Below the pieces are notes generated by a model. The model did no database searches and was not told the origin of the DNA. It was given only the letters and a program-made list of their open reading frames with translations. Below are positions 1 through 31,559 of a stretch of 33,922 nucleotides of DNA, piece after piece. Origin of the DNA: Chrysochromulina tobinii (taxonomy: Eukaryota). The stretch is from positions 1 through 33,922 of the forward strand of contig JWZX01002180.1 of the NCBI GenBank assembly GCA_001275005.1. The letters are read 5' to 3'. The stretch's first letter is position 1; each line of letters opens with the position of its first letter. Made by a program: the position numbers and the translations under genes.

Positions 1-3000
1 GGCGTAACGCACGCTCGCGAGGGTGGGGCGAGCGCCGTCGCGGGCACGGGCGCCGTCGCGGGCAGCGCGCGCGCGTGCAGCTTCCCGCCCTTTTCGCTCT
101 CCCTCAGCGAGAGCAGCAGCGCCGAGTCGCCCAACACGGCGCCGCCGCTCACGCCGGCGCTCGCCGAGGGAGGCGCACCGGACGGCGCTCAATACGGCGC
201 TCAATATGGCGCTCAATACGGCGCTCATGCCGCTCGGGACGGCGCTCCGGACGGTGACACGCGTACTTGGGACGAGGGCGATGACGAGGAGGAGCGAAGG
301 GAACGGAACGATCTCGTGGCCGAGATGGAGGCGGAGGCAGCGCCGTATCGGGCGGAGGCAGCGCCATATCGGGCGGAGGCAGCGCGGTATCGGGCGGAGG
401 CAGCGCCGGTGCTCGCGGCGCCGGCAGCGTCGCCGGCAGCGGCCGCGGCCGACCACGAGAGGCGCCGTGCTGAGCAGTCCGCGGCCGACCACGAGAGGCG
501 CCGTGCTGAGCAGCTCGAGAGGCGGCTTGAGGTCGCAGAGGCGCTTGCACGCGAGGCCGAGGGAGCGCTCTCGTCGGAGCGAGATCGGATCTCCGAGATG
601 GCATCTGCGCTCTCCTCGGAGCGAGATCGCTGCGATGGGCTGGTCGCGCTGCAGGGCGCCATGTCCAAGCGCCACGCAGAGCAGACGGAGGAGCTGCAGA
701 TGGCGATCGCGCTGATGCGCGAGGAGCTCATGGGCGTCGAGGAGCGCGCGCTGATGACCTCCTCCATCAACGAAGCTCGCGAGCGACAGCAGCTCGACAC
801 GGCGCGCCTCGGCCAGCATGCCTGTGCTCACCACGGCGCCTCGCCATCCCCACAGGTGCGCGCCCAGCTCGACGCGCTGCGCCTCGGCCAGCAGGCAGCC
901 AGCCGCGAGGTTGCAATCTCCCGCCAGGAGGCGAGCGATCTCCGAGCCGAGCTCGAGCAGCTGCGCACGGCGCTCGAGGCCGAGGGAAAGTTCCCCACAG
1001 GGGCGGCGACGGCGACGGGCAGGCGGCTGCCGTCGGTGGCAGAGGTGCGCGAGTCGCTCCTGACGCCCCCCTCCGCGGCGCTCGGCTCGGCGTCTTCACA
1101 GCCGGGCTCGTCGTCTTCACAGCCGGGCTCGTCGTCTTCACAGAGCCTCGAGCGCGCGGTGTGGACGCAGCAGGTCCACGAGGCGCTCACGCAGTCGGCA
1201 GAGCGGCGCACGCGCAGCCTGAGGCGCCAGTCCCCTTCAAAGCGCGCCGTCGTGGGCGTCTGGGCCACGCCGCCGCGCGAGGCGTCGTCGTGGGCGGCTC
1301 GGCACGGGGCCGCGGCCGACGACGAGGACGTGGCCGACGTGCCCACCACGACGCCCCAGGTGCCCGACTCGCCGCTGCTGCGCCTGCTGGCTGACGCAGC
1401 GAGAGCGCTTCGAAACACGTCGACGGCGACGCCCCCGGCCACGTGTACGAGGTCGTTCGCTGCGCTCGCCTCCGGCAAGGTGAGTCCGACGCGTGGTGAA
1501 CCGGCCAGGCAGCCGCCATCGAGCAGCCGCCATCGCGACGCCCAGCGCGGCGCGGGCGAGGCGGCGGCGACGGGTGGTACGCCGGAGGTGCAGGCGCTCC
1601 TGCGCCACTCGATGCTCGAGGCTGCCGAGCAGTGGCATCAGACCGAGGTGCTGCGTGGGCAGGTCTTTGAGCTCACGGGCCAGATTGTCGATCTCACGCG
1701 CCAGCTCGAGGAGGCGCAGCGGCGTGCGAAGGAGGCGGCCGCGCGCACGGCCGCGCTCGAGGCGAGCGCGCACGAGAACGCGGCGATGATCCAGGCCGCC
1801 GCGGAGGCCGCGCTCAGGACGGCGCGCGAGCAGGAGGCGGTGCGCGCGGCGGAGTTGGAAGATCGAGTGGCGCGCGCCCGCCGGCAGTCGATGGACACGC
1901 AGCAGAGCTGTGAGTCGGCGACGGAGGCGGCGCACCGGGCGCGCGCGGCGGCGGCCGCGGAGGTGGCCAGGGCGCACGACGAGCTCGCTGTGGCCAAGGA
2001 GGTGGCTGAGGCGGCGGCGAGCTCGGCACGGCGCGAGGCCGCCGCGCAGGCGACGTTGGCAGCGAAGGCGATCGAGGAGGCGCGCCGTATCGAGCAGGAG
2101 GCGCGCCGTATCGAGCAGCGCGCCGAGGCGGCGGTGGCGGCCGCGCGGGAGGAGGTTTCGTCAACGAGGGAGGAGGCGACGGCGGAGCTCGCTCGATTGC
2201 GTCGCGTGATGGCGGCGGCCGATGAGCTGCGCAAGGAGGAGGCCGAGAGGCAGGCGATCGAGGCGGACGAGAGGGTGCGCGAGGCGCGCGAGGCGGCAAG
2301 CCAGGCGCTGCAGGAGGCCGCCGCCGCCGAGCGACGGGCCCGCGACGACGCGGAGCGCACCAAGGCGGCGTTGCACGAGGCGCAGAGCGCGATGAGCCTC
2401 GCGGTGGCGCGTCATGCGTCGGCCGGCCAGGTGGCGCACGAGATCGCGCTGCGTGCCGAGGTGGCCATGGACCGCGGTGACCAAGCTGCCCGTGCGGCGG
2501 TGCTGGCTGCTCGGGAGGACGCGTCGGAGGCGCACGAGATGGCGCACGCGGTCACCGAGCAAGCGAAGAGACTCGTCGCGCTCGCGCACGAGGATACCGT
2601 CTCCTTCCTCGCGCGCCAGCAGGAGGCCGCCTCGCGCGAGCACGCGCAGGTGCTTGGAGCTTGCGCTGTTCCGTCTGGAGAGGACCACTGATGAGCCCTG
2701 ATGAGCCCTGATGACCCCTGATGACCCCTGATGAGCCCTGATGACCACTGATGACCCCTGATGACGCAGGTGCTTGCGGCGATCCGTCTAGAGATGCTCG
2801 AGGCGCGCGAGGGCGCCGAGGCGGAGGTGCAACGAGCTCAGGCGGAGGTGCAGCGAGCTCAGAAGCTCGTGATCGAGGCGCGCGAGGGCGCCGAGGCGGA
2901 GGTGCAGCGAGCTCAGGCGGAGATGCAGCGAGCTCAGGCGGAGGTGCAGCGAGCTCAGGTGGAGATGCAGCGAGCTCAGGCGGAGATGCAGCTGGCGAGG

Positions 3001-5502
3001 GACGAAGCCATTGACGAAGCCGTGGCAAGCGTGCGGCGCGAGACGCACACCGCGTACTGCAAGGCGAAGCTCAAGTGGGAGGAGCAGACGCAGGCGGCGG
3101 AGCGCTCGTTTGCCGCTGCTCTCGACGAGGTGCGCGCCCAGCTCGGCGCGGAGCGCGAGGCGAGCGCGGCGCATGCATGTGCTCACCACGGCGCCGCGCC
3201 TTCCCCACAGGTGCGCGCCCAGCTCGGCGCGGAGCGCGAGGCGAGCGCGGCGCATGCGGACGGGCAGCTCTCGGCCGCTCTCGATCCACTTCGAGCGGAC
3301 CTCGAGCAGGTGCGCTGATTGCCTCTGATTGCATGTGATTGCGTCCCTCATCAGATCCACTTCGAGCGGACCTCGAGCAGGTGCGCTGATTGCCTCTGAT
3401 ATTCTCGGATTGCCTCTGATTGCCACTGATTGCCACTGATTGCCACTGATTGCCTCTGATTACATGTGAGTGCCTATGATTGCGTCCCTCATCAGAAGTC
3501 CCTCCTCGAGCAGGTGCGCGTCGCGCTGAGCAAGAAGGAGGAGCGCTGTGCCGAGCTGGCTGAGCAGGCAAGCGCCGTCTTCACAGCTCTCAGCGCGCAT
3601 AAGGATCGATCTCGCGCCGAGCTCGAGCGCCTTAAGGCGGAACACACGGAGGAGCTGACGAAACTCCAGTCGGAGCGGACGAAACTCCAAACGGAGAGCG
3701 CGGACGCTAGAGAGGCGTTGGAGCTGACGAAACTCCAATTGGAGGCGGCGGGCGCCGAGGCGCGCGAGCTCGCGACCGAGCTCAAGCAGGCGCGCGACGA
3801 GGTGGCAATGGCGAGCTCGTTTTCCCACTGGCGGTGCACTCGGATGAACGAGCTCCACGCCGAGGCGCTCGAGGCGGCGCGCGCGGACGGTGCGGCCGCC
3901 GCGAGCGCGGTCGCGCAGGCGGAGGCGAAGCTCGAGGCGGCGCATGCCGCGGAGCTCGCCACGCTGTCGGCGCAGCATCGCACGCTTGAGCGCGAGTACA
4001 GGGCGGCGCTCGCGACGGCGCGTGCCGAGGCGCACGCGGCGGCGGCGGAGGACGTGGAACGCTTCCGCGATCTCGCGGCGGAGGCGCAGGCGGCGCGTGA
4101 TGAGGCGATCGAGCGCGCCAACGGCCTCGCCGCCAAGCAGACGGCGATGCTGCAGCAGCTCAAGGCGGCGACGCTCGCCGCGACGCGTGCCGCACAGGAG
4201 GCGGCGGACGCTCAATACAACGCGAGTGTGCGCGAGCACAAGGAGGCGCTCAGGACGGCGCTCGTCGACAAGGGGAAGCTGCAGGCCGAGCTGCTCGCCG
4301 CCGCCGAGCTGCTCGCCGAGCGAACGGCCATGGAGAAGGACAGTGGCTCGGCGGCCGTCGCTGCGGCCGCGGCCGCGCATACGGCCGCGACTCAGGCGCG
4401 CAAAGAGCTCGAGGAGGCCGAGGCGAGACTCACGGCCGAGGTGGAGCGTACGGCGTTGGCGACCGAGCGGGCGGCGACACAGGCGGAGCGCGCGCTGCGA
4501 GAGGCCGAGCGCGCGGCGGCGGCCGACGCCAAGGCGGACTTGGCCAGCGCGCGAGCGGATGCGGCCGAGGCAAACTCGCAAGGGCTACGCGCTCAGCTGG
4601 AGGAGCTGCGACGCCAAGCACAGGCGGCGCAGCGTGCACATGAGCACGAGCTGGACGAGGTGCGCCGGCAGCAGGCGCAGGCGGCCGAGGCGGCGGCGGC
4701 GGCGGAGCAGCTCGAGCTCGCCGTCCAGCAGCAAGCGTGGCTGACGGAAGTCGCCGCTCGAGCCGCCTCGTCGACGCCGAACTTCGAGCATACGCCCGGC
4801 ACGACGCCCGCGCCGCCCGGCACGCCGCCGCCACGTTCGACGTCGGTGGCGCTGCGCACATTCCAAGGGTCCGCGCGCCCGGGCTCGCCGTTGGCGCTGC
4901 CCACATTTCAAGCGCCGTTCGCGCCGGCCACGCCGGAAGCGCCCGGCACGGCGCCTGCAGCGCTCCGCCGCCGTGTGAACGATGCCGAGGCGCGCGCACT
5001 CATGGCGGAGCGTCGCCTTGCCGCGCTCGAGGCGTCGACGGAGAGCACGCTCGCCGAGCTCGAGGCCGTCGCGCTTGAGGAGGAGCAAAAGGCGCGGCTG
5101 GCCGAGGAGCGGCGACACGTGGCGGAGCGCCAGCTGCACGCGCTCGAGCGCCAGCTGGGAGCGGCCGAGGGGCAGCATGCGGAAGCGATCGCGAGCCTCG
5201 AGACGCAACTCCGAAACGCCCACGAGCGCGTGCGACACGCCGAGCAGCGCTGTGAGCAGCTCGCGTTCGAGACGCAGCAGGCAACTGCCAAGGCCGCTGC
5301 CGAGGAGAGCGCTCGGCAGCACGTGCAGGAGCGCGCCGAAGCGAGCGAGGCGCGCCTCGGGCGGCTCGAGGCGCACTCGCTCGTCCGGCAGCGCGCGCGC
5401 GAGGAGGCGAGCAGCGGCGGCAGGCAGCGGAGCTCGCGCCTCACTCACGCACGAGCACCACAGCCTGCCTCACCACAGCCTGTCTCACCACAACCTGGGT
5501 AG
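1..5502 (+). CDS. Large Ala/Glu/Arg-rich coiled-coil protein, multi-exon, 5'-truncated by the window
   Basis: Frame 1 is open from base 1 into ORF 316..2691. ORFs 316..2691, 2761..3318 and 3466..5502 join in frame after removing GT-AG segments 2650-2769 and 3310-3513 (HAQ|VLAAIR, LEQ|VRVALS). Heptad-like EAAR-rich sequence. The 3' end is uncertain. Confidence 0.75.
802..855 (+). other. Putative GC-AG intron (54 nt, phase 0) carrying cassette type B
   Basis: Ends ...TGTGCTCACCACGGCGCCTCGCCATCCCCACAG|GTGCGC, nearly identical to the cassette ending at 3210. Donor position (ACG|GCGCGC) is inferred. In frame with no stop, so retention is possible. Confidence 0.45.
2650..2769 (+). other. Spliceosomal intron (120 nt, GT-AG, phase 0) with a 10-nt CTGATGA(C/G)CC minisatellite
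   Basis: CAG|GTGCTT...ATGACGCAG|GTGCTT. Contains an in-frame stop, and its removal fuses two coiled-coil ORFs in frame. Confidence 0.8.
2821..2991 (+). repeat. Coding 21-nt tandem repeats (AEVQRAQ) with a larger internal duplication
   Basis: GCGGAGGTGCAGCGAGCTCAG repeated about 7 times in two blocks, each preceded by EAREGAE. Confidence 0.85.
3130..3210 (+). other. Putative intron (81 nt, GT-AG, phase 0): 47-nt perfect copy of the next exon plus cassette type B
   Basis: 3130-3176 is identical to 3211-3257, followed by ATGTGCTCACCACGGCGCCGCGCCTTCCCCACAG. Confidence 0.7.
3310..3513 (+). other. Compound intron (GT-AG, phase 0) with CTGATTGCC(T/A) minisatellite, cassette type A twice
   Basis: Two GTGCGCTGATTGCCTCTGAT...TGCGTCCCTCATCAG units (3310-3354, 3381-3495) separated by a 26-nt copy of the upstream exon end. 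Acceptors at 3495 and 3513 both restore frame. Confidence 0.8.
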
Positions 5503-5913: not shown

Positions 5914-7047
5914 ATGAACGCGCTGGAGACTCTCGAGGCGCTCGACCACGCCACGCTCGCGCCGTTCGCCGCTCGCCTGACGCATCTCGCGGCGCGCGCC
6001 TGCTCGGACGGTGCCATCGCGCGAGCCGCGTTTCCCATCTTGGAGCTTCCTGACGCGTTGATTGCTCGAATTGTGAGCTTCATGCCGCCGCAGAAGCTGG
6101 CACTGATGGGAGCACTATCGAGCACCTTCCGCTCCCTTCACGTGCCCAACGCAGTAGCGGAGCGTGCGGCATGGCTCGAGCTCAGCACCTCGTATTACAC
6201 CTCGGAACGGGAGTATAAGACGGCGATCGACCTGATGCTCGGCGAGGAAGAGGTCAATCGGGGCTCGATGTTCGCGGAGCCCTTGCGCAAGCGACGCTCA
6301 CCGATCTGCGCCGCCAAGTTGCTCGACACCGCCTCGTTGCCATATAACCCCGGCGAGTTTGTATTCACCCTCACTTTGACTCTATGCGTGTTCTCAACGG
6401 AAGCAGTCCCCCCAACGATACCTGTGGCTCACGACGAATGGGACATCTACACTCATTCCAGCCTCTTGCCGGACTTCCCTCTTGATCTCAAGGCGGCCAG
6501 ATACCTTTCCAATCCACATGCGACCATGGACAAGGAACTCCGTCAAAACTACGGGCCGGCCCATGTTGCCGTTCAAGCGCGCCTTTTTGTGACGCACTCC
6601 GAGACGGGCAAATGGGTCGAGCTCTTCCAAGGGCCGCTGAGTGACGAACATTATTATGATGATTTCGAAGTTCCTCCAACTGAGTTGGATGTTGATGTGA
6701 CGCACCTGATACCATTGAAGCGAGGTGATCACGTCCATACCTTTTTCGAGCGCATCGGCGATCGTTACGATGCAGGCTCACTCACTATGTTCTACATCAA
6801 CTTGTGCAGCCACGGCGTCGAGTACCGAGACACCGAGTCTAACTCCGAGTACGACGCCGATGAGCTCGAAGGGGAAGCCGACGCTGAGACAGAGAAGCAA
6901 CGTGTGACTCTTGGCATGTGGTCGGAGGTGCGATTCCCCTTCGATATGTACCAAGAGGCATTGAACCGTCAGGAGTACGAGCGCGGCAGGATCCATCCTG
7001 CACTTGTGAAGCTACTGCGCAGCATCGAGTTTGACTCGATGGCGTGA
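5914..7047 (+). CDS. F-box domain protein
   Basis: PILELPDALIARIVSFMPPQKLALMGALSSTFRSL matches the F-box pattern (LPxE/D..I..F L....L....V(S/C)+.F). First ATG at 5914. C-terminal region not recognised. Confidence 0.7.
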   Translation: MNALETLEALDHATLAPFAARLTHLAARACSDGAIARAAFPILELPDALIARIVSFMPPQKLALMGALSSTFRSLHVPNAVAERAAWLELSTSYYTSEREYKTAIDLMLGEEEVNRGSMFAEPLRKRRSPICAAKLLDTASLPYNPGEFVFTLTLTLCVFSTEAVPPTIPVAHDEWDIYTHSSLLPDFPLDLKAARYLSNPHATMDKELRQNYGPAHVAVQARLFVTHSETGKWVELFQGPLSDEHYYDDFEVPPTELDVDVTHLIPLKRGDHVHTFFERIGDRYDAGSLTMFYINLCSHGVEYRDTESNSEYDADELEGEADAETEKQRVTLGMWSEVRFPFDMYQEALNRQEYERGRIHPALVKLLRSIEFDSMA

Positions 7048-7478
7048 GTCATTCGTGCGTTGTATCGTGCGTGTGCGGATACAAGCTCAACGCCGCTGTT
7101 TTCCGTGATACTTGTACAGCATTGAGAGTGCACATGATAGAAAAGTTTGTCTTTTGTCTCACCGGACCTACTACCTAACGAGGCGGGCGACTTAAGCGGG
7201 CGACCATCCTTCGTAACATCCTTCGGGCGACTAGCGAACTCCCCCTTGGCAGAGGGCGGTTCGTTGAGAGTGCGCATGATAACATCTGCTAAACATCTGC
7301 CATCTAGATCACATGATGATTAGCAAGTAATATATTCCTGCCAGAGCGTTCAACTTGGGGTGGGGGTTCCTCTTGCATGCATCCAAAAAGAAACGCGAAA
7401 CAGAAATCGTAACAGGAAATCCGCTGCGTATGCACGCATTGGACGTCATCGCCGTCAAGTATCAGAAGCTCATCTCTG

Positions 7479-10400
7479 ATGGTGGCGCCGTCTCCTCCGT
7501 ATCCGCAGCGGACGCAATCGCCGACAAGTAGCAGGACCTCATCTCCATCAGCAGTCAAGGGCTCGCGTGCTCATCTCTTGGTGGCCCAGAGCCTATTCAA
7601 AGCTGTGTCCAAGGGAGCCGACCGCATCTCGATGGAGGCGATGAAGGCTCACCTACGTGAGCGTGGTGATGTGCCTGATGAGTTGCTCGACAGCGTAGTC
7701 AGCGCGCTTGATATCAACGGCGATGGCGAGATCGACCTGCATGAGTTTTCGCAAGGATGGGACACGGTGGCAGTCGAGAAGGCAGCGGCCGAGAAGGCAG
7801 CGGCTGAGAAGGCGGCGGCCGAGAAGGCGGCGGCGGCTGAGAAGGCGGCGGCTGAGAAGGCGGCGGCCGAGAAGGCCGAGGCGTCCGAGAAGGCGGCGGC
7901 CGCCGCGGCCACATACGATCCGAAACTCGTACAGCAGCAAATGAAGGAGATGGAGGCGGCCAAGGCGGCCGAGGCGACACGCAAGCAGCGCGAGGAGCTC
8001 GAGTACACTCGCGAGGCGATTCGACGCTCAGAGGAAGCGCAGCGTCTCAAGAAGCTGGCCGAGGAGGAAGAGGCTGAGAAGAAGAGAGTGGAGGAGATCG
8101 CCGCAGTTCGTCACAAGATGCTGATCTCGTCGGCCATGCCTCTACCTCTGCCACCGCCGCCGCCAGAACTACTCGTACCCGCTTCAGCCGCCACGGCGCC
8201 CGCCTCTAACAAGGCGGCAGCCGAGGAGGCGGCGGCCGAGAAGGCGGTGGCGCCCATGAAGGCAGCTGAGAAGGCAGCAGCTGAGAAGGCGGCGCTGGAC
8301 GAGTCCAAGGAGACGGCGGCGGAAGCGAAGGAGGAGGCAGCGAAGGAGGAGGCTACTAAGGCCGCTGCGGCCGAGGAGGGCGACGCTGCGGCAGCGGCGG
8401 CGCTTTCAAGGGCGATGGAGGCGGAGGCGCGCGCGGCGGCGGCGGAGGCGCGCGCGGCGGCGGCGGAGGCGCGTGCGGTGGAGGCAGAGGAGCGCGCTCG
8501 CCAGGCAGAGGTGAAGGCGGTCACCGCCTCTGCGGAGGCGGCGGCCGCCGCGGCAGCCCTCCTCGCCTCCACGCCACTGGTGCCAGATGCGCCAGTGGAT
8601 GCCTCACCGACGACCAGTGGTGCCCCTCCGGCAGGTGCCGCCCCGGCTGTAAAGAAGGTGGCGGCGGCGGAGAAGGCGGCCGCGACCGAGAAGGTGACGG
8701 TTGTCGAGAATGTGGCTGTTGAGAAGGCGGCGGCCGAGATGGCCGCAGCTGATAAGGCGGCCGATGAGAAGGCCCTGGAAAGGGGAGCAGCGGCGCTGGC
8801 AACGGAGGAGGCGGCGGCAAGGGAAGCTGCCAAGGGGGCCGTGGCGCCCGTGCAGACCGTGATCGCTCAGAGTGTCCCAACCGTCTCAAGACCATCCTCC
8901 GCCGAGTTGCTGGCAAGGGAGGAGGCAGCGCTCTTGGTCGAGCTTGCAAACGCTCAGAAGGCTCTCGCCGAGGCCGAAGCCGTCGAGAAGGCACTGGTCG
9001 AGGCTGCGGCGGCGGAGGCGGCAGCGGAGGCGGCGGCGGAGGCGGCAGTAGCGGCCGCCATCGTCCAAGCGGCCGCGCGGCGCTGGTTGGTGGGCTTCCG
9101 CGAGAGGCGACGGCTCGCAGCGCTCGAGGCGGCGGCACCGGCGCAGGTATCTCAACCAGCACTGCAAGCTCCCGAAAGGCCCCAAACCCCTGCCGAGGTC
9201 GTCGTGCAGGCGGTGATCGCTCAGAGTGTTCCAGCCGTCTCAAGACCATCCACCGCCGAGTTCATGGCAAGGGAGGAGGCAGCGCTGATGGTTGAGCTTG
9301 CAAACGCTCAGAAGGTTCTCGCCGAGGCCGAAGCCGCCGAGAAGGCACTGGTCGAGGCTTCGGCGGCGGAGGAACTCAATCATTTCGAGGCACAATTGGA
9401 GGTCGAGGAGGCGACAGTCACAGTACCTTCTGCCACCACAGAAGTAGAGGTCCTGGCAGGGGCGACGGCGGCAGCGCCTACTGAGGTAGTGGCGGCGATT
9501 GTCGCAGCGCCTGCTGCCACCGCTGAGGGGGCGGCAACCGAAAAGGTGGCCGCGGCCGAGAAGGTCGCAGCAGCCGAGGAAAACGCGACGGCCGAGAAAA
9601 AAGCGCTGGCCGAGAAGGCGACGGAGATAGAAAAGGCGGCGGCCGAGGCGAAGGCGGCCGCTGAGACAGAGAAGGTGGCTGTGGCCGAGAAGGCGGCAGC
9701 TCAAAAGGCGGCGGCCGAGAGAGCGGCGGCCGAGAGGGCGGCGGCGGCCGAGAAGGCGGCAGCCGAAAGGGCGGTGGTGGCCGAGAAGGCCGCGGCCGAA
9801 AAGGCGGTGGCCGACAAGGTAGCGGCCGAGAAGGCAGCAGCCGAGAGGGCAGCAGCCGAGAGGGCGGCGGCCGAGAGGGCTGCGGCCGAGAAGGCAGCGG
9901 CCGAAAAGGCGACGGCCGAGAAGGCGGCGGCCGAGAAGGCGGCGGCCGAGACAGCGGCGGCGGCGGCACGTGAGGTGCTGGTGGAGGCGACGGTGCAGTG
10001 GGTGATGGCAGAGGCGCTGCAGTTGGAGGCACGGAGGCAGATGGAAGAGAGGCAACGAAGGGCTGCGGCGGCAGCGGCGGGCCGTCGAAAAGTGCACAAG
10101 GCGGCACATGCCATCCGTGCGACGATTCGAATGCATGCCCTAGCAGAGGAGACGAGGGCCATTTCGAGGGCCGAAAAGGCTGTGCTCATTCGCAAGCTCG
10201 CGCTCGAAGAGTCTGCCTACGCTCTCGCCGTCGTCTGGGACCTCGCAATGAAGGAGTGTGATCTGTTGGCCGCCGAGAGGGTGGCAGCCGAGGCCGCAGC
10301 GGCTGAGGCAGCGATGGAGTCCGATCCCAAGATGAGGGCGCTCTTCGACAAGATTCTGACGGAGCCGAGTCTCGAGGGCACAACGCTCGTCGACATGATG

Positions 10401-11492
10401 CGGGCGCTCACGAAGGCTCGTGGGCACGTGGGCCTCGCGTTCCTTCACCTGCAAAGGGCTCATTCCGAGCCTCGACCAGCATTCATCTCAACAGTAGCAC
10501 TTCCCTCGGCTCGCACTGAGGCCGAGACTACGGCAGCTAAGGAAGCGGCAGCAAAGAAGGCGGCGGCTCAGGCAGCTGCGGCCGGCGCGACGGGCGCCGA
10601 GGCGCCGCTGCCTGAGGGGTGGATGCAGGTCAAGGCACCCGACGGGCGGACTTACTACTTGATTCAGGGAGGCGGCAAGCCGCAGTTCGAGCGTCCGACG
10701 GAGCCCGCATCCGCATCGTTCGGCCTATCGGAAGGGCGGATTCCGTTCGGATCGTGGCCTGCTCGCGGCATGACGCCTTTGGCCTCTCTGCCGCCGCTAC
10801 CTTCCACTCGACGTACCCAGGCGTGGTACGACCGGCAAGAACAGCTCCAAGAAAGGTTGAATGCGGGGCGGCTGTTACAGGAGGCTGCTGAGCAGCCTTT
10901 GCCGCTTCCAGCCATTGCTGACATCCAGCCTCAGCTGTGGCCCTCGACCACTTGGGCGGGATACGACTCGGCGAAGCGGATGAGAGGCCGCCACGACGGC
11001 AGTAACAGTGCGCACGGAGGCCTGCTTGGGGGGTCAAATGCTGCCGGTGGAGCAACAAAGCTTATAGACCCGACCTCATTTGAAACGCCCACCGCGCCAA
11101 AGGTAGCAGCTACCTCCAAGGCGAGCCCGCGCGTGCGGATAGCGCGCCAACAGGCAGAGTACAAGGGCGACACTCATCAACCGAAGGAGGCGACAAGCTT
11201 GAGCCCCCAGCTGATCTTGCCCAACCTAACACCTCGCTCGGGGATGGGAGCTGCGCGAACGGCAATGGAGCGCCAGTTGGCAGCGTACCATGAGATCTAC
11301 GGACAAGACCAACGTGTTGTCCATCATCACCAGCGGCTCAAGCCAAACTTAGTCAGGCCTGCACTGTCAGCAGAGACGCGTCCAGAAGCCACACTTCTAC
11401 CACACGTCAATGTGCTGGGAAGCGGGGCCGGGGGTAAAGGTAAGGGTACAAGTACGAAAAAGGCGCATGCGTACTTTGAAGCGTATGTATGA
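7479..11492 (+). CDS. EF-hand / IQ-like / WW domain protein with long AAAEK low-complexity repeats
   Basis: EF-hand loop [15 protein letters not shown]-like [16 protein letters not shown]-like [30 protein letters not shown]; (EKAAA)n tracts; about 56-aa internal duplication (8850-9017 vs 9204-9371). Confidence 0.8.
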
Positions 11493-11589: not shown

Positions 11590-14500
11590 TCAAACGTCTT
11601 CGAGCCTGAGGCGAGCGACAATGTTCATAGATTGCAGCTCCTGAAACAACAATTTGCAAGCATATGGGATCTCAATCTGGCGCAGCTTCTCGCCATTATG
11701 ACAGTTTCGGCACCATGCCGGGCGACCCAATAGGCCGCACGTCTCGCACACGTGCACCTGGAAACAGTCGGACGAGGTCATCAGCCGCTCGTTGAGCAGC
11801 ATAGATGCGCCGTAGCCAATCAGACAGTCGCGCTCCATCTCGCCGAGACGCAGCCCACCCTCACGCGAACGCCCTTCAGTCGGCTGACGCGTAAGCACCT
11901 GCCGCGGCCCACGCGCGCGCGCATGCATCTTGTCAATGACCATGTGCTTGAGCTTTTGATAGTAAATGGGCCCAACGAAGACGTAGCTCTTGAGCGGCTC
12001 GCCGGTCAAGCCACTGAACATGATGTCCTTGCCAAGGTAGTTGAAGCCATGCTTCACGAGCGCCACGGAGCACTCGGCGACTGAGTCGCCCTTGAAAGCA
12101 GTGCCATCCCCCATGCGACCCTCGAGCACGCCCGCCTTGCCCGCCATGAGCTCAATCATCTTTCCAACGGTCATGCGCGAGGGGAAGCCGTGCGGGTTCA
12201 TGATGATGTCCGGGCACACGCCCATGTCAGTGAAGGGCAGGTCCTCCTGCGGCACGATTCGACCGATGACGCCCTTTTGGCCGTGGCGCGACGAGAACTT
12301 GTCGCCTAGCTCTGGCCGTCTCGTTGAGCGCACGCGGATCTTGACGAGTTGCCGATCGTTCTTATTCCCCGAGAGCATCACGCGGTCCACGTACGTATCC
12401 ATATGCCCGGCGGGGCCTTTGTACGTCAACGGCGACGGACGCAGCGCCGAGTCGGGCAGCCGCTCGTGCTCCGAGTAGGGCACGTCGTCCCGCGTGTTGA
12501 CTGGCGTGTGCTTATTGACGAGGAGGTCGAGTTGGTGGATCCGCTCGCCGACCATGCACAGGCCATCGTCGTCGATCAGCCGAAACCTGTTCGGCTGCGA
12601 GGAGCGCTCTCTCAGCCCCTCGCGGGCTGCAGCCGGTGATGGTTTAGGCGGTGGCCTCGCGACCTCGCAAGAGCCATTGGGGAACTTTTTGAAGGTCTGG
12701 GTGAACTTTTTGAGCACCATGCATCGGCCGAAGCCGCGGTCGAGGGCCGCCTTGTTGATGATGAGCGCGTCCTCAATGTCGTATCCCGAGTAACTCATGA
12801 CTGCGACGGTCGCATTGTGCCCAGCGGGCAGATTCGCGAACTTGATCAGGTCGAGCGTACGTGTCTTGACGAGCGGCTTATGCGGGTAGATGAGCAGGTA
12901 CAGGATGGTGTCGATACGATCAGCCTGGTTGTGCGCAATGGTGCCCATCGCTTGCTTGCCCATGGCGCACTGATACGTGTTGCGAGGCGACTGGTTGTGA
13001 TGGGGATATGGGATGAGGCCCGCGCACACGCCCAGGATCGTGAGGGGGTCGATCTCCATGTGTGTGTACTGCGTCCGCCGCTCGCCGCGCAGGTCTGCTT
13101 CCGAGACCGCGATCTCGGCCGAATTCTCCTCGTTGACATCGAGGTACTCAATGATGCCCTCCTTGATGAAGGCCGACCACTCGCGCTTGCCTGCAGCGAG
13201 CTCGTCGAGGTGGCACTGCTTGAGCAGCAGCGTGCCGTTGTCGACGATGAGCAGCGGGCGGCACACCCGTCCTGAGTCGGAAGCGATATTGACGCTCCGG
13301 TGCGTCGGATGCAATTGCACAGAGACGAACTCGCCCACGTGGCCCGTGCGGCGCAGCTGACGGATGGTGGCCAGGAGCTTGTGCGGCTGTCGGTGCACCC
13401 CAAGGATGAGGCCGTTGAGTAAAACGAGGTGTGCGCCGTTCCTCGCCTCGTACAGGTCGTCCGGGCAGAGCAGGTGCACATCTTCGACGCCGAGGGAGAA
13501 GCACAGCCGCCGAATCGGCTCCTCGTCGTCGTCGGTGGTGACATGTGTCGAGAGCGCGAGGTTCTTGACGAGACCGCACGCCTCGCCCTCGGGCGTGTCG
13601 CTCGGGCAAAGCATGCCCCACTGCGACGGCTGCAGCGAGCGAGGTCCCGAGACCTTGCGCGTCTTTTCGAATTGTGACATGATGCGGGTCATCATGCCGA
13701 GGCATGAAATGTACGAGAGCCTCGATAGCACCTGCGTGACGCCGCTGCGCTCCATCCGGAACCGCTTGACCGACCAGTTGCCAGTCGAGATCGCGTTGTT
13801 GAAGCCGTTGGTGAAGATGTCCTCTCGCACTGACTTGGTGACGTCATATGCCTCGGCACGCGCCGAGGTCTTGGCGAGCTCAACCGACGCCTGCCGCTTC
13901 AATTCGGCACACATCTTCTTGAATAGATCTTCGAAGAGAAGCGAGAGCAGCTGCCCGGCGAGCTCGAGCCTCTTGTTGCCGTAGTAGTCCATATCATCCA
14001 TGAACTCCTCATCGAATTGTGCCGAGATCATTCGGCGCACCATCTGCGCCACGTACATCACCTTGGGAGCGAAGTCATACTCGACCACGGGCACATGAGC
14101 GAGCAACACGTGGGCTAGCAGCTCTCGCGCCTCGTCCCGCTTGGAGCGGCGCGGCGTGCGCTCCCACGTGCCTCGGCCTCCCGTCCGAATGCGCTTCGCG
14201 ATATGATCCAGCGCCTGCCCTTCTGAAAAGATCCCGAGCATCGAGCACTCCTTAAGCGACGTGGCCATCGCCTGCGCAAACTTGGGCTCCGAGCCGACGA
14301 GCTGCAGGATCTCCTGGTCGGAGGTCACGCCCATGGCCTTGAACGCAATCACCACGGGCAGGTCGTCCGACATCGTGTTGTGCCGCAGCACGAACTTGCC
14401 ACCCTTGCAGTCAATGTGCGTCTTCGACTTGCGTTCGTGCGTCGAGGAAGTGACCGCCGAGTGGATCTGGTTCTTATTGTCGCGGTCCACAATGATGCGG

Positions 14501-15126
14501 TTCTTCGAGAGCTGCTCTTGGATGAGCACCACTTTCTCTTGACCTTTGACGATGAAGTACCCGCCCGGGTCGCACGGGCACTCGCCCATGCGTGCAAGCT
14601 CCTCCTCGGAACGCCCATGCAACATACACTTGTTCGAGCGGAGCATGACTGGCATGCGGCCTACCGTCAGCCCGCGCTTCAGCCGGCGCTGCGTCCCGAC
14701 CGTGTACTCAACGTCCACTTGCACCGGCGCGGAGTACGTGATGTCTCGCAGCCGACACTCTTGAGGCGTGAATCGCCCCGACTCCCAAGTCAGCTCGGCA
14801 GAAAGGTCCTCCTCGACGGAAGGTGCGCCCAAGTAGACATCCAAGAATTTGAGATAGAAGTTTGGATAATTGTCACAGGTGACACGCTCGTTGGCTCGTA
14901 CGATGTGCTTGATACCAATATTCACCAGATGGTTGTACGAATCGAGGTGCTGCTTGACGAGACCGCGGACGCGCAAAAAGGCAGGCAGCAGTCGCCATTT
15001 ATCTTTGACGTCTGACACGGGCGCCTCAAGTTGCTCACGATCACCAAGGAGGCATGAGCGGACCTGTTCGTCTTCATCCGCAAGGATCGCCTCAGCTGCG
15101 CGTTGCAGCGGAGTAGTGAGCACCAT
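11590..15126 (-). CDS. RPC2: DNA-directed RNA polymerase III second-largest subunit (RPC2/POLR3B), intronless
   Basis: Pol III-type N-terminus [72 protein letters not shown]-terminal Zn ribbon, [14 protein letters not shown]. Start set at ATG 15126 (MVLTT). Confidence 0.96.
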
Positions 15127-18433: not shown

Positions 18434-20107
18434 ATGGCGTCTTTCATGCTCTTCTGCGCCGTGACAACAAGCAGCTTGCTCCCGAGCCTCAGAGTCTCGG
18501 GCCGAGCACGTTGCAGCGTGCCATGCTGCGCCACCGCATGGGACCCACAATCTTCCGGGGATGTTGCACTCGCGAGCGTGCTCGGGCTATGCCCACTCGA
18601 TGCTGACAATGCCGCTCTGCTAGATGCTGTGCACCCTCGATCGTGGCAAGATCCGACACCACCCGATGTTTACGATCTCGTCGTCATTGGAGCTGGCGCG
18701 GGCGGGCTTGTCTCGGCCAAGCAGGCGGCACGCCGTGGTGCGCGCTCGTGCCTGATCTCGGAGGAGCTCGCCGGTGGAGATTGTCTCAACGTCGGCTGTG
18801 TGCCTTCGAAGGCTCTGCTGCGTTCAGCTCGTGCCGCGCGTGAGGTGCGGCGGGCCGCCGATTTCGGCGTCGTACTTAGCGAGCCACCCTCTGTCGACTT
18901 TGCGGCGGTTATGGCGCGGCTGCGGAGGCTGCGAGCCAAGATTGCGCCGGCGGATGCGCACTCCGCGACGGTCAGCGTCGGCGCCGACGTGTACCAGGGC
19001 CGCGGACGCTTCGTGCGGCGTGACGCCGTGGAGGTGAATGGGCAGCTGCTCACCTTCAAGAAGGCCGTGATCGCCACAGGCGGGCGGGCGGCCGTGCCGC
19101 CCATCCCCGGGCTCGAGAGCACGCCGTACCTCACCAACAGCAACCTGTTCAATCTGCGCGAGCTGCCACCTCGGCTCGTCATCGTGGGTGCTGGCCCGAT
19201 AGGCCTGGAGATGGCGCAGGCCTTTGCGACCTTTGGCTCGCGTGTGCACGTGCTCGGCCGATCAGCGAGCCTTCTCCCACAGGAGCATCCGGCGGCGGGT
19301 CGAGCGCTCGCCGCAGCTCTCGAAGAAGACGGCGTCGTCATCGTCTACAATACGACTGTGCAGAGCGTCGCACATGTGCCTGCGGCCGGTGGCGTGCTGG
19401 AGGGCCAAACGGAGCCTGCGACGTTCCCGACCATCACAGTGCAGTGCGTGGGCCGCGATGCGCAACCTTTCGTTCTCGAGTGCGACGCACTGCTCATCGC
19501 CACAGGCAGGTCACCCAACGTGGCCGATCTCGGGCTCGAGATGGCGGGAGTGGCCATCGATGCGGGCGGCGTGCTCGTCGACGAGCGACTCCAAACGTCC
19601 AACCCGAATGTGTACGCGGTGGGCGATTGCGTCTCAGGCACGCCGCGCTTCACCCACGTGGCCGGCGAGCACGCCAAGGTGGCGGTTGAAAATGCTCTCT
19701 TTGGAGGCGAGTGGCGTCACACGGCCTTTCTCGTGCCCGGCTGTATTTATACCGAGCCCGAGGTAGCGACCGTGGGATTGAGCAGTGCTCTCGCTGCGGC
19801 CGCGGCCGGCGTCGACGTCGACGAGTACTTCACGTCTCTGGAGGGCAATGACCGAGCTATCCTCGAGGATGAGGACGAGCACGGAGGATTCGTCAACGTG
19901 CTCTGTCGTCAAGGCACTGCCGAGATCGTGGGCGCCACAGTGTGCGCAAACCGCGCGGGCGAGATCATCAATGAGCTTACGCTCGCCATCCAGGCCAAGG
20001 TGGGCCTCGACACCCTCGCGCGCGTCATCCATCCCTATCCGACCACGTCGGAGGCGGTGATGCAGTGTGCTTTGCAGTGGATCCGGGCACGCTGGAAGAC
20101 GATGTGA
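18434..20107 (+). CDS. Pyridine nucleotide-disulfide oxidoreductase class I (mercuric reductase-like / dihydrolipoamide dehydrogenase family)
   Basis: GAGAGG FAD motif, redox GGDCLNVGCVPSK, GAGPIGLE NAD(P) motif, VYAVGD, HPYPTTSE dimerisation motif; N-terminal targeting-like leader; no C-terminal Cys-Cys. Confidence 0.92.
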   Translation: MASFMLFCAVTTSSLLPSLRVSGRARCSVPCCATAWDPQSSGDVALASVLGLCPLDADNAALLDAVHPRSWQDPTPPDVYDLVVIGAGAGGLVSAKQAARRGARSCLISEELAGGDCLNVGCVPSKALLRSARAAREVRRAADFGVVLSEPPSVDFAAVMARLRRLRAKIAPADAHSATVSVGADVYQGRGRFVRRDAVEVNGQLLTFKKAVIATGGRAAVPPIPGLESTPYLTNSNLFNLRELPPRLVIVGAGPIGLEMAQAFATFGSRVHVLGRSASLLPQEHPAAGRALAAALEEDGVVIVYNTTVQSVAHVPAAGGVLEGQTEPATFPTITVQCVGRDAQPFVLECDALLIATGRSPNVADLGLEMAGVAIDAGGVLVDERLQTSNPNVYAVGDCVSGTPRFTHVAGEHAKVAVENALFGGEWRHTAFLVPGCIYTEPEVATVGLSSALAAAAAGVDVDEYFTSLEGNDRAILEDEDEHGGFVNVLCRQGTAEIVGATVCANRAGEIINELTLAIQAKVGLDTLARVIHPYPTTSEAVMQCALQWIRARWKTM

Positions 20108-20299
20108 GCGCGAGAGTTGGAGCATTGACCGTGTATCGGCCGGTACAGCAAAACGGCCGGTGCAAGTAGGGCTCGCAACGGGCCATACGCTCTCTAATTG
20201 CGGCTTGCCAAGTTTGGAACGGGCGCCGTTCTGCGTCTTGCGGCATGGCGAAGGCGAAGGCAACCGGGTATGTCCCGGCTCGAGCATGATGCTGAGCGG

Positions 20300-20521
20300 T
20301 AAGGCAAGGCGCATTTGGACGAGGCGCACCTGATGAGGGTGGCAATCAGCATGCGCTCAGAGGGACCAGTCCGTGCCTATCAGGGCCAGTCTAAAGTCGA
20401 CGAGGCGCACATGTGCCCGCGCGTCCAGCAACACGTTCTCCGGCTTCAGATCACGGTAGAGCACCCCGCGCGCATGCATGTGCCCGAACACGCAGAAGAC
20501 TTCGGAGGCGACGAAGCGGAT
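20300..20521 (-). pseudogene. AGC-type protein kinase remnant, subdomains VIa-VII
   Basis: IRFVASEVFCVFGHMHARGVLYRDLKPENVLLDARAHVRLV(DF/QM)RLA; no N-lobe upstream and DFG degraded. Confidence 0.75.
20330..20410 (-). other. Intron (81 nt, GT-AG, phase 0) with type A acceptor cassette
   Basis: On the minus strand: CAT|GTGCGCCTCGTC...CTGATTGCCACCCTCATCAG|GTGCGCCTCGTC. 12-nt duplication of the exon start; 3' end matches introns at 3310-3495. Confidence 0.65.
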
Positions 20522-20549
20522 AGGCATGGGCGGCCGCTGCCCGAGCACC

Positions 20550-20725
20550 GACATACTCGCTGGCACCGGCGGTAACATGGCGCCTCGCTGGCACCGACGG
20601 ATGTACATACTCGCTGGCACCGACTGATACATGGCGCCTGAGGTCCTGAAGGCTGGCCGTTGCTTGCATGCGGTCAGTGCAGCGTGTGCTACTCAGCGCC
20701 AGCCGACTGGTTCACTTTCGGTGTG
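20550..20725 (+). pseudogene. Protein kinase remnant, subdomains VIII-IX, opposite strand to the previous fragment
   Basis: ILAGTD*YMAPEVLK (TGA at 20625-20627), frameshift, then YSAPADWFTFGV; the LAGT segment is present in three degenerate tandem copies. Confidence 0.7.
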
Positions 20726-20981: not shown

Positions 20982-23900
20982 ATGGAAACCCTGCCGGGTC
21001 CGAGCGCGGAGCCGCAAGACCTGCAAATGCACCCGATCCTCGAGCAGTGGGAATGCAATTCCGATGGCAGCATCACGGGTCGCGTGTACGGTAAAATGGG
21101 TTGGGAAGAGGGCATTCAAATGACCACCTCGATCGTGCCAACGGAGACGCACTACGCTACCTACGTCATCACGGTGTCTGGCAGCATCTACCGGCTTGGA
21201 GAGAAGCTGTCGGGCGTGGGTCAGACGGATACGAGGAACGCAGATGCTCAGCTGTTGATTCCAGCCACGTTGCCGGCAGCATCGGCGCAGCCACGAAGCA
21301 GTGGCCGTGCTAAGTGTGCACCCCTTGAATTCTGGAAGGGCGAACGGCCGATCTATGCCGCCAGTCCGAATGGTTTGACGCTGCAAGGCGTCATCCGCTA
21401 TCCGTGCTCCGACGCAGCAGCACTGCCTGCTAGCACGCAAAAGGCACGCGGCGCGTCCAGGCCCGCTCAGCGAGGCTCAAGCCCCGGAAAAACGTCGGAG
21501 AAAGAGGCGGCATCCATCTGCGCGTCCAAGGACGACTCGCAGCGCGAAGCCGCTTCCGCGGCTGCGGCGACGGCTGCTGCTCGGGCGAGGGAGGAGGCTG
21601 CAAGGGCGGCGACGACGGCGGCGGAGGCGCGCGCAGCGACGGCGGAGGCGAAGGCCCGAGCCGCACGTGCCGAACTGGAGGCGACTCGGGCGCGCGCAGC
21701 GGAGGCGGCGGCTGCAGCTGCGGCTGCGGCGGCGGCGATGGATGCCGCGCAGCGGGAGGCGGCTGCGGCAGCGACGGCGACTGAGGAGGCGCGGCGGGAG
21801 GTGGAAGCGGCGCAGCGGGAGGCAGCAGCTGCACTACCGGTCCTACCGGTACTGCCGCCCAAGCCCGGGCGCCCTCGTGCGCCAACGAAGCCTTTGGTGG
21901 TCGTCGCACCCATTGATATTGATCGCGACTCACCTGTTGCCATGGACAGCAGCCAATCGCCCATCAGCCCTCTAGCAGCTGCGGGCGAGCTCCTCGCAGG
22001 TTCGGTCGCCAAGGCACAGGCGGAGGCCGAGCGCGTGTGGAGTGCTCTCGGATCTGGCCTTTGTGGCTGGGCCGGCTGCACGAAGCCGGCGCGCCATTCT
22101 GGCTTTTGCGTGTCGGTGCCCGACTCCCGCCGTGAGAAGGAGCCAGTGCAGATGGATACGGCCAAGCCCGCGCCCAGCCCACGCGAGCTCATGAGTCATG
22201 CACGCAACGAGGGCAGGCTGCCGCCCTCAAAGAAGCCCAAGCTGGGCGATCGTGTCCGAGGCAAGTACCAGGGGCAGATAGGCGGCCGCAACTGGTTCGA
22301 CGGCGTGGTGACGGCGGTGCACGAGGATGGCACGTGCGATCTGCAGTACGATGATGGCGACTACGAGGAGCGCGTGGCGCCGCGGTTCATCAAGGTGATT
22401 GCCGAGGCAGAGACCGAGGAACGTGAGGAGGAAGAGGAGTCTGAGGTGGAGGAGGAGGAGGTGGTGGAGGAGCCCTCTGAGGGGCAGGGTACGGATGGTG
22501 CCAACCTTGGCGCAGCAAGCGTGTCCAAGCAGCCGCGCGAACGCAAGGCTCTGCACGAGGGCGGCAGCCATCGCCCTCGCATCAAGCCGGAAGAAGTCAG
22601 GGCTGTCGCAGCTGCTGAGGGTCTCGAGCTGCTGCTGTCGTCGAGGAATGAGACAGGCTTCAGGGACGTGACCAAGCGGAAAGGCAAGTATCATGCGGAT
22701 ATCCGCGAGACTGACGTTCATCGCAACATCCGCGGCACCTTAGCGACGCGGGAGGATGCGGCCTTGGGCTACGCGAGGCATATTGGGGCAGAGCGAGCGG
22801 CGGCGGAGGCGGCGGAGGGGAGGGCCGAATGTCCGCAGCCGCTCACAGCGGACGAGGCTAGGGCGGCCGCGGCGGCAGCAAGGGCTGCCGCGGTGGCCGA
22901 GGGGCTCAAGCTGGTGCCATCCTTGAGCAACGAGACGGGATTCAAGGGCGTGACCAAGCGGGAAAAGAGTTATGAGGCAAGGAAAAAGGAGAATGGTAAG
23001 CAGCGCCGCCTCGGCAGCTTCGCGACGGCTGAGGAGGCAGCCTTGTGCTATGCGAGGTACATTGGGGCGGAGCGAGCGGCGGCGGAGGCGGCGGAGGCAA
23101 GGGTCGAAGGGCCGCAGCCGCTCACAGCGGACGAGGCCAGGGCGGCCGCGGCGGCTGAGGGGCTCGAGCTGGTGCCGTCGTCCATTAGGAAGACAGGCTT
23201 CAAGTATGTGCACGCTCTTCCTGGAGGCAAGTTCGAGGCATCTGTGTGGGACCATGACAAGACGATCCATCTCGGCACCTTCGCGACGGCTGAGGAGGCG
23301 GCTTTGTGCTATGCGAGATACGTTGGGGTGGAGCGAGCGGCGGCAGAGGCGGCGGAGGCAAGGGTTGCAGCGCCGCAGCCGCTCACAGCGGACGAGGCCA
23401 GGGCGGCCGCAGCGGCTGAGGGGCTTGAGCTGGTGCCGTCATCGAGGTCGAGAAGTGTGGCAGGCTTCAAGGGCGTGCGAATGCACACTCCGTCATATTT
23501 TCAGTGTTCAGTCATAGAAGAGAATGGCGAGAAGAAGCGCTACCTGGGCACCTTCAGAACGCCGGAGGAGGCGGCCTTGTGCTACGCAAGGCATATTGGG
23601 GCTGAGCGAGCGGCGGCTGAGGCGGCGAAGGTGAGGGGTGAATGTCTTCAGCTCAAGGCGGACGAGGCCAGGGCGGCCGCGGCGGCCGAGGGGCTCGAGC
23701 TTGTGCTGTCGTCGAGCAGTCAGACAGGCTTCAAGGGCGTGTACAAGCATCATCGCAAGTACAAGGCGTACGTTTCGGAGAATGGCAACGGTTGCCACCT
23801 CGGCACCTTTGCGACAGCTGAGGAGGCGGCTTTGTGTCATGCGAGGTACATTGGGGCGGAGCGAGCGGCGGCAGAGGCGGCGGAGGCAAGGGTCGAAGTT

Positions 23901-27884: not shown

Positions 27885-28082
27885 TGCGGCGCGTCGCGTT
27901 GTGCCGTTGCAATCGTCACATTCACATTCACAATCGATAGAAAACAAGACGCGTCCCTACATGGTTGTTAGCTAAGCACTGAGTCGTCCATTTCCCTGCA
28001 CCACGACTATGAAAAAGTCGAGCGCCTCGTGCTCCTCTTGTCTCGAGTCGTGGGTGGCTCCGGTGCGACTATCGGAGCGTCA

Positions 28083-30486: not shown

Positions 30487-30574
30487 CTCCCCATCTGACG
30501 CTCCGCCTCATCGGTGTTCGCCGCCATCGAGCTTTCACCAGCCCCACCTGTTCCCCTCTCGCATCAGGTGCTAT

Positions 30575-31255
30575 TCACGGCATCGAGTGCTCACGCAGCC
30601 ACGTGGCTGCTTCCTCTTTGCTGACGGGTAAGCAATCATCGATCGAGGCGCTCGCCACCATCGAGTAGTAGCGGCGCGCCATATTCTCGTCGTACGGAAA
30701 GCCATTGAGGCCACCTCCGTATGCGTATCCCAGAATGAAGCACGCGCTCTTGCTGCCTCGTGTGGCGGCCTCGCTCATCACCGTAACACCACGCGTAAGG
30801 CACGCCGGCACGCCTTTACCCATCAAGTAGCACCTGCCAAGGCAGCCAGTCCCACTGAGATCCCCAGCCTCGTAGCTCTTCTCGAACCACTTGAAAGCCT
30901 TGGCCTTGTCCTCAGCGAGGCCCTTGTCACCAAGCTCGTACCATAGCCCCAGGTTGTACATGGCACAGCCATCACCAGACTCGGCCAAGAGCCGCGTCTC
31001 CGTCACCACCTCCTCTTCATTCAGCCTCAGCTCCAACGCCTCGGTCAAGAGCCGCGTCTCATTCACATCCTCCTCCTCCACTTCGTCACCCGTGCGAGCG
31101 CCCTGTGTTTGGGTAGCAAAGATGTCTTCCTTCAACAATATTTCCTCGTTCGATGCTCGCGCGGCTCGTCCTTTCTTCCCCTTAGGCGCTAAATGAAGCC
31201 CGGGGACTTGACGCATTGGCGCGCGCGCGTGCGAATCCGGGTCGTCTTTCGGCAT
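30575..31255 (-). CDS. Sel1-repeat protein, copy 1
   Basis: AMYNLGLWYELGDKGLAEDKAKAFKWFEKS, LGRCYLMGKGV, ACFILGYAYGGGLNGFPYDENMARRYY are Sel1-like repeats. Confidence 0.85.
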   Translation of the reverse strand: MPKDDPDSHARAPMRQVPGLHLAPKGKKGRAARASNEEILLKEDIFATQTQGARTGDEVEEEDVNETRLLTEALELRLNEEEVVTETRLLAESGDGCAMYNLGLWYELGDKGLAEDKAKAFKWFEKSYEAGDLSGTGCLGRCYLMGKGVPACLTRGVTVMSEAATRGSKSACFILGYAYGGGLNGFPYDENMARRYYSMVASASIDDCLPVSKEEAATWLREHSMP

Positions 31256-31464
31256 CCTGCCGCCGATGAACGCCGCAAGAACGCCACCTACCGCAAGATA
31301 GGCTCATGTGGCTCGTGCCGACCGACGAAGTAGCCAGGGAATTCGCAATTCCCGCAATTAATTGTACGCGACCGCCGCGCACCACAGCGCTTGTACCGGT
31401 AAAAAGACACCGGGGGAGCCGGGACACACACGGGACCGGTATGGTAAGCGAGACGTATCCCCGC

Positions 31465-31492
31465 GCAAGCAAGCAAGCAAGCAAGCAAGCAT

Positions 31493-31536
<44 letters not shown>

Positions 31537-31559
31537 ACAAGCAAGCAAGCAAGCAAGCA
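31465..31559. repeat. (GCAA)n microsatellite
   Basis: About 23 GCAA units with two interruptions. Confidence 0.95.

Follow-up and report, generated by a model that had tools for sequence, protein, structure and literature searches.

Introns combining a copy of the host exon with a cassette shared among unrelated genes in Chrysochromulina tobinii and metagenome loci

The origin of new spliceosomal introns is a long-standing question, and large-scale gain has so far been credited to transposons; duplication, repair and transfer as intron sources rest on few cases. The closest described systems are introners which carry their own acceptor and co-opt a donor at the target, with duplications fixed at 4 or 8 bases (10.1101/2020.10.14.339549). 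Introners have also been reported from marine Chrysochromulina MAGs by a screen that demands similarity near both intron ends (Gozashti 2022; 10.1101/2022.06.06.494994; PMC9860276). Gozashti 2025 (PMC12130899) gives zero introner families for C. tobinii and includes a five-copy E. huxleyi family (family 24) that co-opts the 5′ splice site, carries the 3′ one and shows terminal direct repeats of 10 bases. According to the C. tobin genome paper, there is one intron per gene on average (PMC4580454). Tandem genomic duplication, double-strand-break repair and transfer have been counted as separate mechanisms, with 188, 5 and 3 events, respectively (PMC3443670), and the review PMC11282704 likewise treats them apart. 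For the introners of Micromonas, reverse splicing into R-loops has been proposed (PMC4540971).

The introns discussed here resemble the carried-acceptor introners in that the donor comes from the duplicated target, donors are GT, GC or, putatively, GA, and the phase is set by the host; they differ in that the duplications span 10–50 bases, inverted ends such as those of the Symbiodinium elements are absent, half of the intron is host-derived, and exon ends of the donor are carried along (10.1101/2020.10.14.339549). With the MAG and E. huxleyi introners they share the lineage and the absence of inverted repeats, whereas the figured Chrysochromulina introner is of opposite polarity, with a duplication of 4 bases (10.1101/2022.06.06.494994). 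Junction direct repeats, duplication of AG|GT giving splice sites and homology-led intron copying are all familiar from the mechanisms of PMC3443670; transfer in that account is between paralogs, however, while here the mechanisms appear combined, between unrelated genes and at no fewer than 100 sampled loci. Repeated coding-strand introns without a coded transposase are also a feature of the Micromonas model, but there a whole intron is inserted cleanly, which predicts neither long host duplications nor exon capture (PMC4540971). For Replitrons, target duplications are reported for one family, and no link to them was found (PMC10288648, accessible part). Since a search of the open full-text literature returned no description of it, this intron architecture is apparently undescribed so far.

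The window, i.e., the whole stretch of DNA analysed, comprises 33,922 nucleotides of C. tobinii (contig JWZX01002180.1). Exact look-ups of five of its frames gave no match; its RPC2 protein is 98% identical to the representative of a 90% cluster containing C. tobinii and C. parva proteins, in keeping with a haptophyte of the Chrysochromulina type. The host gene (1..5502, plus strand, with its 5′ end before the window) encodes an alanine/glutamate-rich protein for which a Pfam search returned no family. A first search, among longer proteins, found no homologs, and proteins of six relatives (P0139–P0144) match the gene. Upon removal of four segments (802–855, 2650–2769, 3130–3210 and 3310–3513), a single open frame runs to 5502, with all segments in phase 0. 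A preliminary description had taken these four, together with 20330–20410 on the minus strand, as introns that are uniformly in phase 0, precede GTGC and open with a copy of the following exon start.

Two of the five are spliced. The intron at 3130..3210 (plus strand) consists of 47 bases copied without a mismatch from the start of the following exon, as had been claimed (3130–3176 equals 3211–3257; 49 bases counting the preceding AG), and of cassette A at 3171–3210, which overlaps the copy by 6 bases; this 81-base segment is skipped from GT to AG in two of four RNA runs (X15, X16). In the intron at 3310..3513 (plus strand), cassette B is flanked on either side by a copy of a 16-base host junction (3300–3315 equals 3504–3519), again in agreement with the earlier reading, and the 204-base segment is skipped from GT to AG in three of four RNA runs (X15, X16, X17). 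Both skips are present together in one X16 contig, and the predicted RNA joints 3129/3211 and 3309/3514 are thus both found. Both splice sites of 3310–3513 derive from host copies, its end being a copy of the upstream exon and not a cassette AG, and an internal 71-base duplication extends into the upstream exon. Assembly collapse across the 49-base repeat might imitate the 81-base skip; the DNA run has no joint like it among the 15 joints listed out of 30, and the 204-base skip involves a repeat of only 16 bases. Two bins have zero depth in three RNA runs and are covered in the DNA run, which argues against heavy DNA carry-over in the RNA runs. Removal from GT/GC to AG, the mark of a spliceosomal intron, is therefore seen at 3130–3210 and 3310–3513 and not at 802–855 and 20330–20410, where RNA reads through.

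The segment at 2650..2769 (plus strand) is a predicted intron with in-frame stops, made of a decayed exon copy and cassette C (10-base repeats). The degenerate copy previously noted here amounts to 26 bases at 81% identity plus a 12-base exact junction repeat. Among the joints listed for six RNA runs, none joins 2649 to 2770; one X14 contig departs from the window at 2656, the point where the exon and intron copies diverge. The relative P0143, approximately 89% identical to the window in protein, stops at this very site with a different exon-like copy followed by TPDDL, the translation of the cassette C repeat; the position of the predicted intron is common to both.

As the preliminary description had stated, none of the five window segments has ends joined by an inverted repeat; RNA folding of four stretches gave nothing beyond shuffles (z −1.05 to 0.99). 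Over both window strands, an exact upstream copy of at least 12 bases occurs at 5 of 210 YAG|GT/GC sites (3211, 3381, 20329 and two inside a coding 21-base tandem array), and upstream copies at window acceptors exceed chance.

At 802, the partial copy noted earlier proved to be part of a larger event, a 75-base in-frame insert at 790..864 (plus strand). It starts with one 29-base copy of host sequence (790..818), of which the second copy follows at 865–893 with 3 differences. The decayed cassette A at 816..855 contains a putative branch point, recognised by its motif, a pyrimidine tract and CAG, and resembles 3171–3210 as well as cores from metagenome loci. The nine bases at 856..864 equal the exon start at 3211 (3211–3219), are not native to the site and were presumably captured from the donor's downstream exon. 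The supposed intron 802–855 has 54 bases, in frame and without a stop. An X19 contig spans 600–924 ungapped and an X14 contig covers 528–821; the insert is kept in RNA, and the expected joint 801/856 is not confirmed. In all six relatives' proteins (two cluster members plus four proteins with 88–92% identity to the host frame), exactly 25 residues are missing at this site, which reads ERQ-KLD without VRA. No placement of GT/GC..AG is possible within the duplicated stretch, so splicing cannot explain the absence in relatives, and occurrence in one of seven haplotypes favours gain. This sole insert shown to be absent in relatives, retained as it is in RNA contigs, is likely a copying event that gave no used intron and survives as 25 extra residues.

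At two further plus-strand sites the window itself is empty. The CAG|GT site at 2431..2436 is predicted to bear a cassette-C insert in P0144, which matches the window in 182 of 185 residues just upstream and then reads VA-TPDDH-stop, a translation of cassette C. The G|GT site at 2477..2483, across which the window and P0143 read on, is predicted to be occupied by cassette C in P0139–P0142, all of which end DRGD-H-stop. Both inserts, in one and four relatives, respectively, are deduced from protein ends; among the matches listed, the corresponding DNA motifs occur 4 and 50 times in metagenome loci, and no TAA/TAG spelling of PDDH-stop was found there. The relatives' proteins P0139–P0144 look mosaic, P0144 being like the window in 182/185 positions over residues 621–805 and in 344/394 before, which suggests recombination between haplotypes.

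The minus-strand segment 20330..20410 has a cassette B end and the 12-base exact copy claimed for it (read on the minus strand, 20410–20399 is identical to the 12 bases that follow 20330), which over 30 bases has decayed to 73%. RNA contigs of X14 (20032–20552) and X18 (19772–20439), whose strand is not known, run through it. It lies inside a protein kinase remnant (20360–20686, minus strand; Pkinase, E 1.4e-11) between two plus-strand genes; the Pfam match reaches into the supposed intron copy, where the motif is better preserved. A 49-base tandem repeat is located near 20551–20640.

Instead of the two reusable cassettes proposed, the window contains three kinds, namely A, ending CCCCACAG, B, composed of TGATTG repeats and ending CCCTCATCAG, and C, composed of CTGATGAC repeats, and one segment (3310–3513) ends in host sequence. 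A metagenome scan with the cassette-A core, which covered 15 of 64 parts, yielded at least 124 stretches assigned to at least 121 loci with 731,967 bases; one locus among the matches (L134) appears not to be related. The loci contained 364 cores; a pyrimidine tail ending YAG and enough flank were present in 257, corresponding to 182 distinct acceptors among the matches listed, and in 117 of these a copy of the exon start is anchored upstream, compared with 0.17% of random pairings. Once 22 back-to-back units and another 5 acceptors with near-identical exon starts had been set aside, the window's two being among those removed, 155 acceptors remained, all outside the window, and at a score of at least 10 the copy was found in 102 of them, against the same 0.17%. 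This supports the earlier proposal that the donor comes from duplicated host sequence. In the other 53 of the 155 listed acceptors no significant copy was detected, the score cut hiding copies shorter than about 10 bases. Beyond the seed, the long loci contained 149 cores in 543,212 bases, a density inflated by locus choice and overlapping loci.

In the 102 listed cases, duplication length varies as had been described, with a broad spread over 10–50 bases (median 23) and 41 perfect copies. The copies begin with GT in 75 cases, GC in 9, GA in 5 and other bases in 13. Among the 155 listed acceptors, cassette A is followed by GT in 122 and by GTGC in only 37, so the GTGC rule applies to the window and not to the loci; GA exon starts number 8, and the GA-starting copies (e.g., L062, L085, L132) may possibly represent GA donors. 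Phase 0 is likewise universal in the window only, the 47 confidently framed cases among the matches listed being distributed 30/5/12 over phases 0/1/2, close to what the GT sites available in the coding frames of the window would give. The implied introns have a median of 80 bases (5th percentile 67), with lengths modulo three of 39/32/31, and copy length correlates negatively with the rest of the intron (rho −0.61), as would be expected if the roughly 37-base cassette needs filler to reach a spliceable length. Together with copy lengths modulo three of 28/44/30, i.e., no bias to multiples of three, this argues against a prior in-frame tandem duplication. In 44 of the 102 listed cases, at least two of the bases before the donor match the cassette end, against 7.5% at nearby GT sites, which can reflect splice-site preference as much as microhomology. 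Flanks, once spliced, score higher in sense than in antisense in 85 of the 102.

Cassette B behaves similarly, with an exon copy in 31 of 95 acceptors among the matches listed (22 of 68 when GT/GC follows) against 0.85% of random pairings; a control motif gave 2 of 63 in the same test. Cassettes C, D and E provided too few cases among the matches listed (4, 7 and 2). Viral and prokaryote collections contained no match for three cassette patterns, and the 2 and 34 matches of shorter patterns were taken as chance. Taken together, the architecture is real and widespread beyond the window. Of 12 segments missing from L055, L072, L139 and L146 relative to L096, 11 have GT/GC..AG ends, in contigs that may be RNA or DNA. 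In a myosin gene of L096 (assigned by Pfam), back-to-back intron units occupy 5990–6272 and 6381–6530; L139 is devoid of just one unit in each pair, the first, with GT..AG ends, and L055, L072 and L146 of both units at 5990–6272. This would be stepwise (recursive) splicing if the contigs are RNA and unit polymorphism if they are DNA. The accessible part of the myosin intron paper PMC5583752 gives no haptophyte positions.

There is good evidence for copying between unrelated genes. Among the matches listed, private 5′ linkers are common to 10 of 11,935 non-homologous pairs against 2 of 23,562 in the null, with 19 of 155 introns having an identified linker partner. Where a linker is one partner's own exon copy, the direction of copying follows; thus, in L096, the stretch which the intron at 15715 shares with that at 11698 is a copy of its own exon at 15715 and not at 11698. 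Introns of L078 and L042 hold the upstream exon end together with the intron start of L077 and L057, respectively. An L137 intron matches window 856–893 in 37 of 38 bases, with L137's own exon agreeing for 19 alone. L058 carries 7 bases of the exon following an L096 intron, and donor downstream-exon starts are thus found both at window 856–864 and in L058. In five pairs the flanks are unrelated, with local scores of 6–11 beyond the junction as opposed to 148–247 for an orthologous pair. The earlier proposal that branch point and acceptor are taken from other introns is borne out by these private linkers in unrelated genes, with the qualification that an acceptor can also be a host copy.

As to the junctions, homology is found at both in 790/3130 and L058/L096, and in several pairs donor and target exon starts share 13–19 bases. 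A direct join to the consensus is present in 10 of 62 clean cases, and in this biased subset entry microhomology of at least 3 bases occurs in 4 of 10 against 5.6%. Microhomology at both junctions beside an identifiable template, as sought for a templated insertion in DNA repair, is thereby observed for the traced cases. The length of the shared exon start follows tail identity in a weak trend. Near-identical cassette pairs number 6 of 149 within loci and 86 of 11,673 between loci among the matches listed, with strain as a confounder; local copying as a general rule is not supported, cassettes within a locus not being more alike overall than between loci (p 0.54). Exon ends are absent from excised introns, and their presence in the traced inserts points to genomic DNA or unspliced RNA as the template. 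An unspliced template is likely, as the cassettes carry pieces of both introns and exons of unrelated genes.

Alongside what is established, i.e., the anatomy, its spread over loci, the splicing of two window introns, the carry-over of donor linkers and exon ends, and the absence of one insert in relatives, we consider it probable that existing introns have their 3′ half copied into GT sites through homology-guided template switching. Guided by short homology, a polymerase copying one gene would jump to an unspliced copy of a second gene that bears an intron, returning 10–50 bases out of register. One junction would rely on the target being homologous to the exon start of the donor; in most donors that start begins with GT, and targets would hence tend to be GT sites. 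The other would use microhomology of 1–6 bases, located within the cassette or upstream of it. The offset would duplicate host sequence, and the GT opening the first copy would become the 5′ splice site. Selection would retain cleanly spliced inserts of about 65–90 bases, or in-frame ones such as 790–864. Each new intron may in turn become a source for further copying, and existing introns may be rebuilt when such events recur there. Break repair, proposed in the preliminary description, is one candidate behind these introns, next to a stalled fork and a reverse transcriptase. New introns are likely products of gene-to-gene copying in which no transposon can be recognised.

That these are instead short, non-autonomous retroposon-like introners, whose CAG-ending RNA would be reverse-transcribed at a nick (target-primed) and whose target-site duplication would supply the donor, we judge unlikely. 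A fixed 3′ end, a variable 5′ extent and a variable duplication, as expected of non-LTR (SINE-like) elements, are indeed observed, and the common 5′ edge of cassette A (GCAT, approximately 145–149 of 155 per position among the matches listed) is also expected of a defined element. Non-LTR introners exist, and in a Pavlovales family classed as such the 5′ site is co-opted and the 3′ site carried (PMC12130899). Neighbouring cassettes less than 1.5 kb apart lie on the same strand in 86 of 86 instances among the matches listed; this strict sense orientation fits a pre-mRNA template and fits selection as well. Against such an element stand the lack of a poly(A), simple or common 3′ tail in the listed cases, the three kinds of cassette recombining with each other, the 13–19-base homology of exon starts, and linkers that trace to different unrelated introns without a single master element; moreover, donor exon ends captured on both sides require an unspliced template and not a discrete element. 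A reverse transcriptase acting in trans on pre-mRNA is possible and is counted here within template switching.

Turnover without net gain, by which the content of old intron positions would be replaced through tandem duplication spanning the 3′ splice site and through intron conversion, so that the copy dates the rebuild, appears quite improbable as the explanation, although rebuilding evidently takes place. L066 (minus strand) and L093, 98.3% alike, have at one intron position cassette B versus cassette A with unequal copy lengths; the freshness of the copy differs between L096 and L072 at one site; 22 of 182 acceptors among the matches listed are back-to-back units; tandem duplications are many in the genome; and the 2650 position is common to a relative. 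Against gain by template switching, DNA yielded no clean case of presence versus absence: in 19 orthologous locus pairs, many of them found through the cassette itself and at least 99% alike, 49 of 49 acceptor counts are shared (both sides counted). Two sites represent replacement. Old intron positions are expected to show fewer GT/GC exon starts than the 138 of 155 found among the matches listed. Further against turnover, 790–864 is missing in six of six relatives, the window reads through 2431 and 2477, and most copies abut the upstream exon without an older remnant. The claim of active gain is supported at the protein level insofar as inserts differ between close relatives and has to be qualified insofar as existing introns are rebuilt, too; there is some evidence for ongoing gain, which probably goes on side by side with rebuilding.

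We attach hardly any credence to a third group of readings, in which excised introns are reverse-spliced or transposed, or an AG|GT site is simply duplicated in tandem alongside a convergent branch motif. These would agree with the sense-strand orientation and with 3310–3513 drawing both splice sites from duplicated AG|GT, and both mechanisms have been proposed (PMC4540971, PMC3443670), but they are contradicted already in the traced cases, as reverse splicing inserts a whole clean intron, hence neither a long host duplication nor donor-exon capture, and plain duplication leaves unexplained the private linkers common to unrelated genes.

Turning back to the template-switching reading, the introns can be set against described classes. 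As in introners in the broad sense, sequence is shared among unrelated genes (at least 155 cassette-A and at least 95 cassette-B acceptors in at least 121 loci), yet similarity does not extend to both ends, the 5′ part being a local exon copy in 102 of 155 listed cases. The inverted repeats and fixed short duplication of TIR DNA-transposon (MITE) introners are both lacking; in contrast to tandem genomic duplication, where the intron is wholly local, the 3′ half is a foreign cassette; and the unrelated flanks of the five pairs speak against paralog intron transfer. The 5′ end of these introns lacks the similarity for which the 2022 screen looks near either end (10.1101/2022.06.06.494994), which exposes a blind spot of introner screens. 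Cassette A is free of in-frame stops at 802 and 3130 and is thereby a cause of wrong gene models.

More tentatively, and short of an even chance in our estimate, intron-making may be element-free and self-propagating, any intron before GT being partly copied, via an unspliced template, into an unrelated gene. If so, the duplicated target supplies the donor and the length that the cassette lacks, the process is running now in freshwater haptophytes at genome scale and invisible to introner screens, and failed in-frame attempts persist as new protein segments. These young introns record their own target and often their donor, and as the alga is culturable and its sites are polymorphic, donor–recipient networks, the DNA or RNA nature of the template and the proto-splice-site idea become directly testable.

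Several further observations concern the window at large. Frames are uninterrupted in the genes for the RNA polymerase subunit RPC2 (11593–15126, minus strand), a pyridine nucleotide-disulphide oxidoreductase (18434–20107, plus strand) and PP2C (26478–27956, minus strand), whereas locus L096 is crowded with cassette introns, i.e., there is clustering by gene. A 1359-codon frame (7413–11492, plus strand) abounds in AEKAA repeats and has stretches which, labelled by eye, we take to be EF-hand-like and WW-like. Approximately six 258-base repeats lie at 22988–24486 (plus strand) in a 1595-codon frame with a RING-like finger at the frame end. Finally, a near-identical segment is present in two copies and part of a third (approximately 30530–31300, 32050–32900 and 33780–33922), with a GCAA microsatellite at 31465–31559 between copies.
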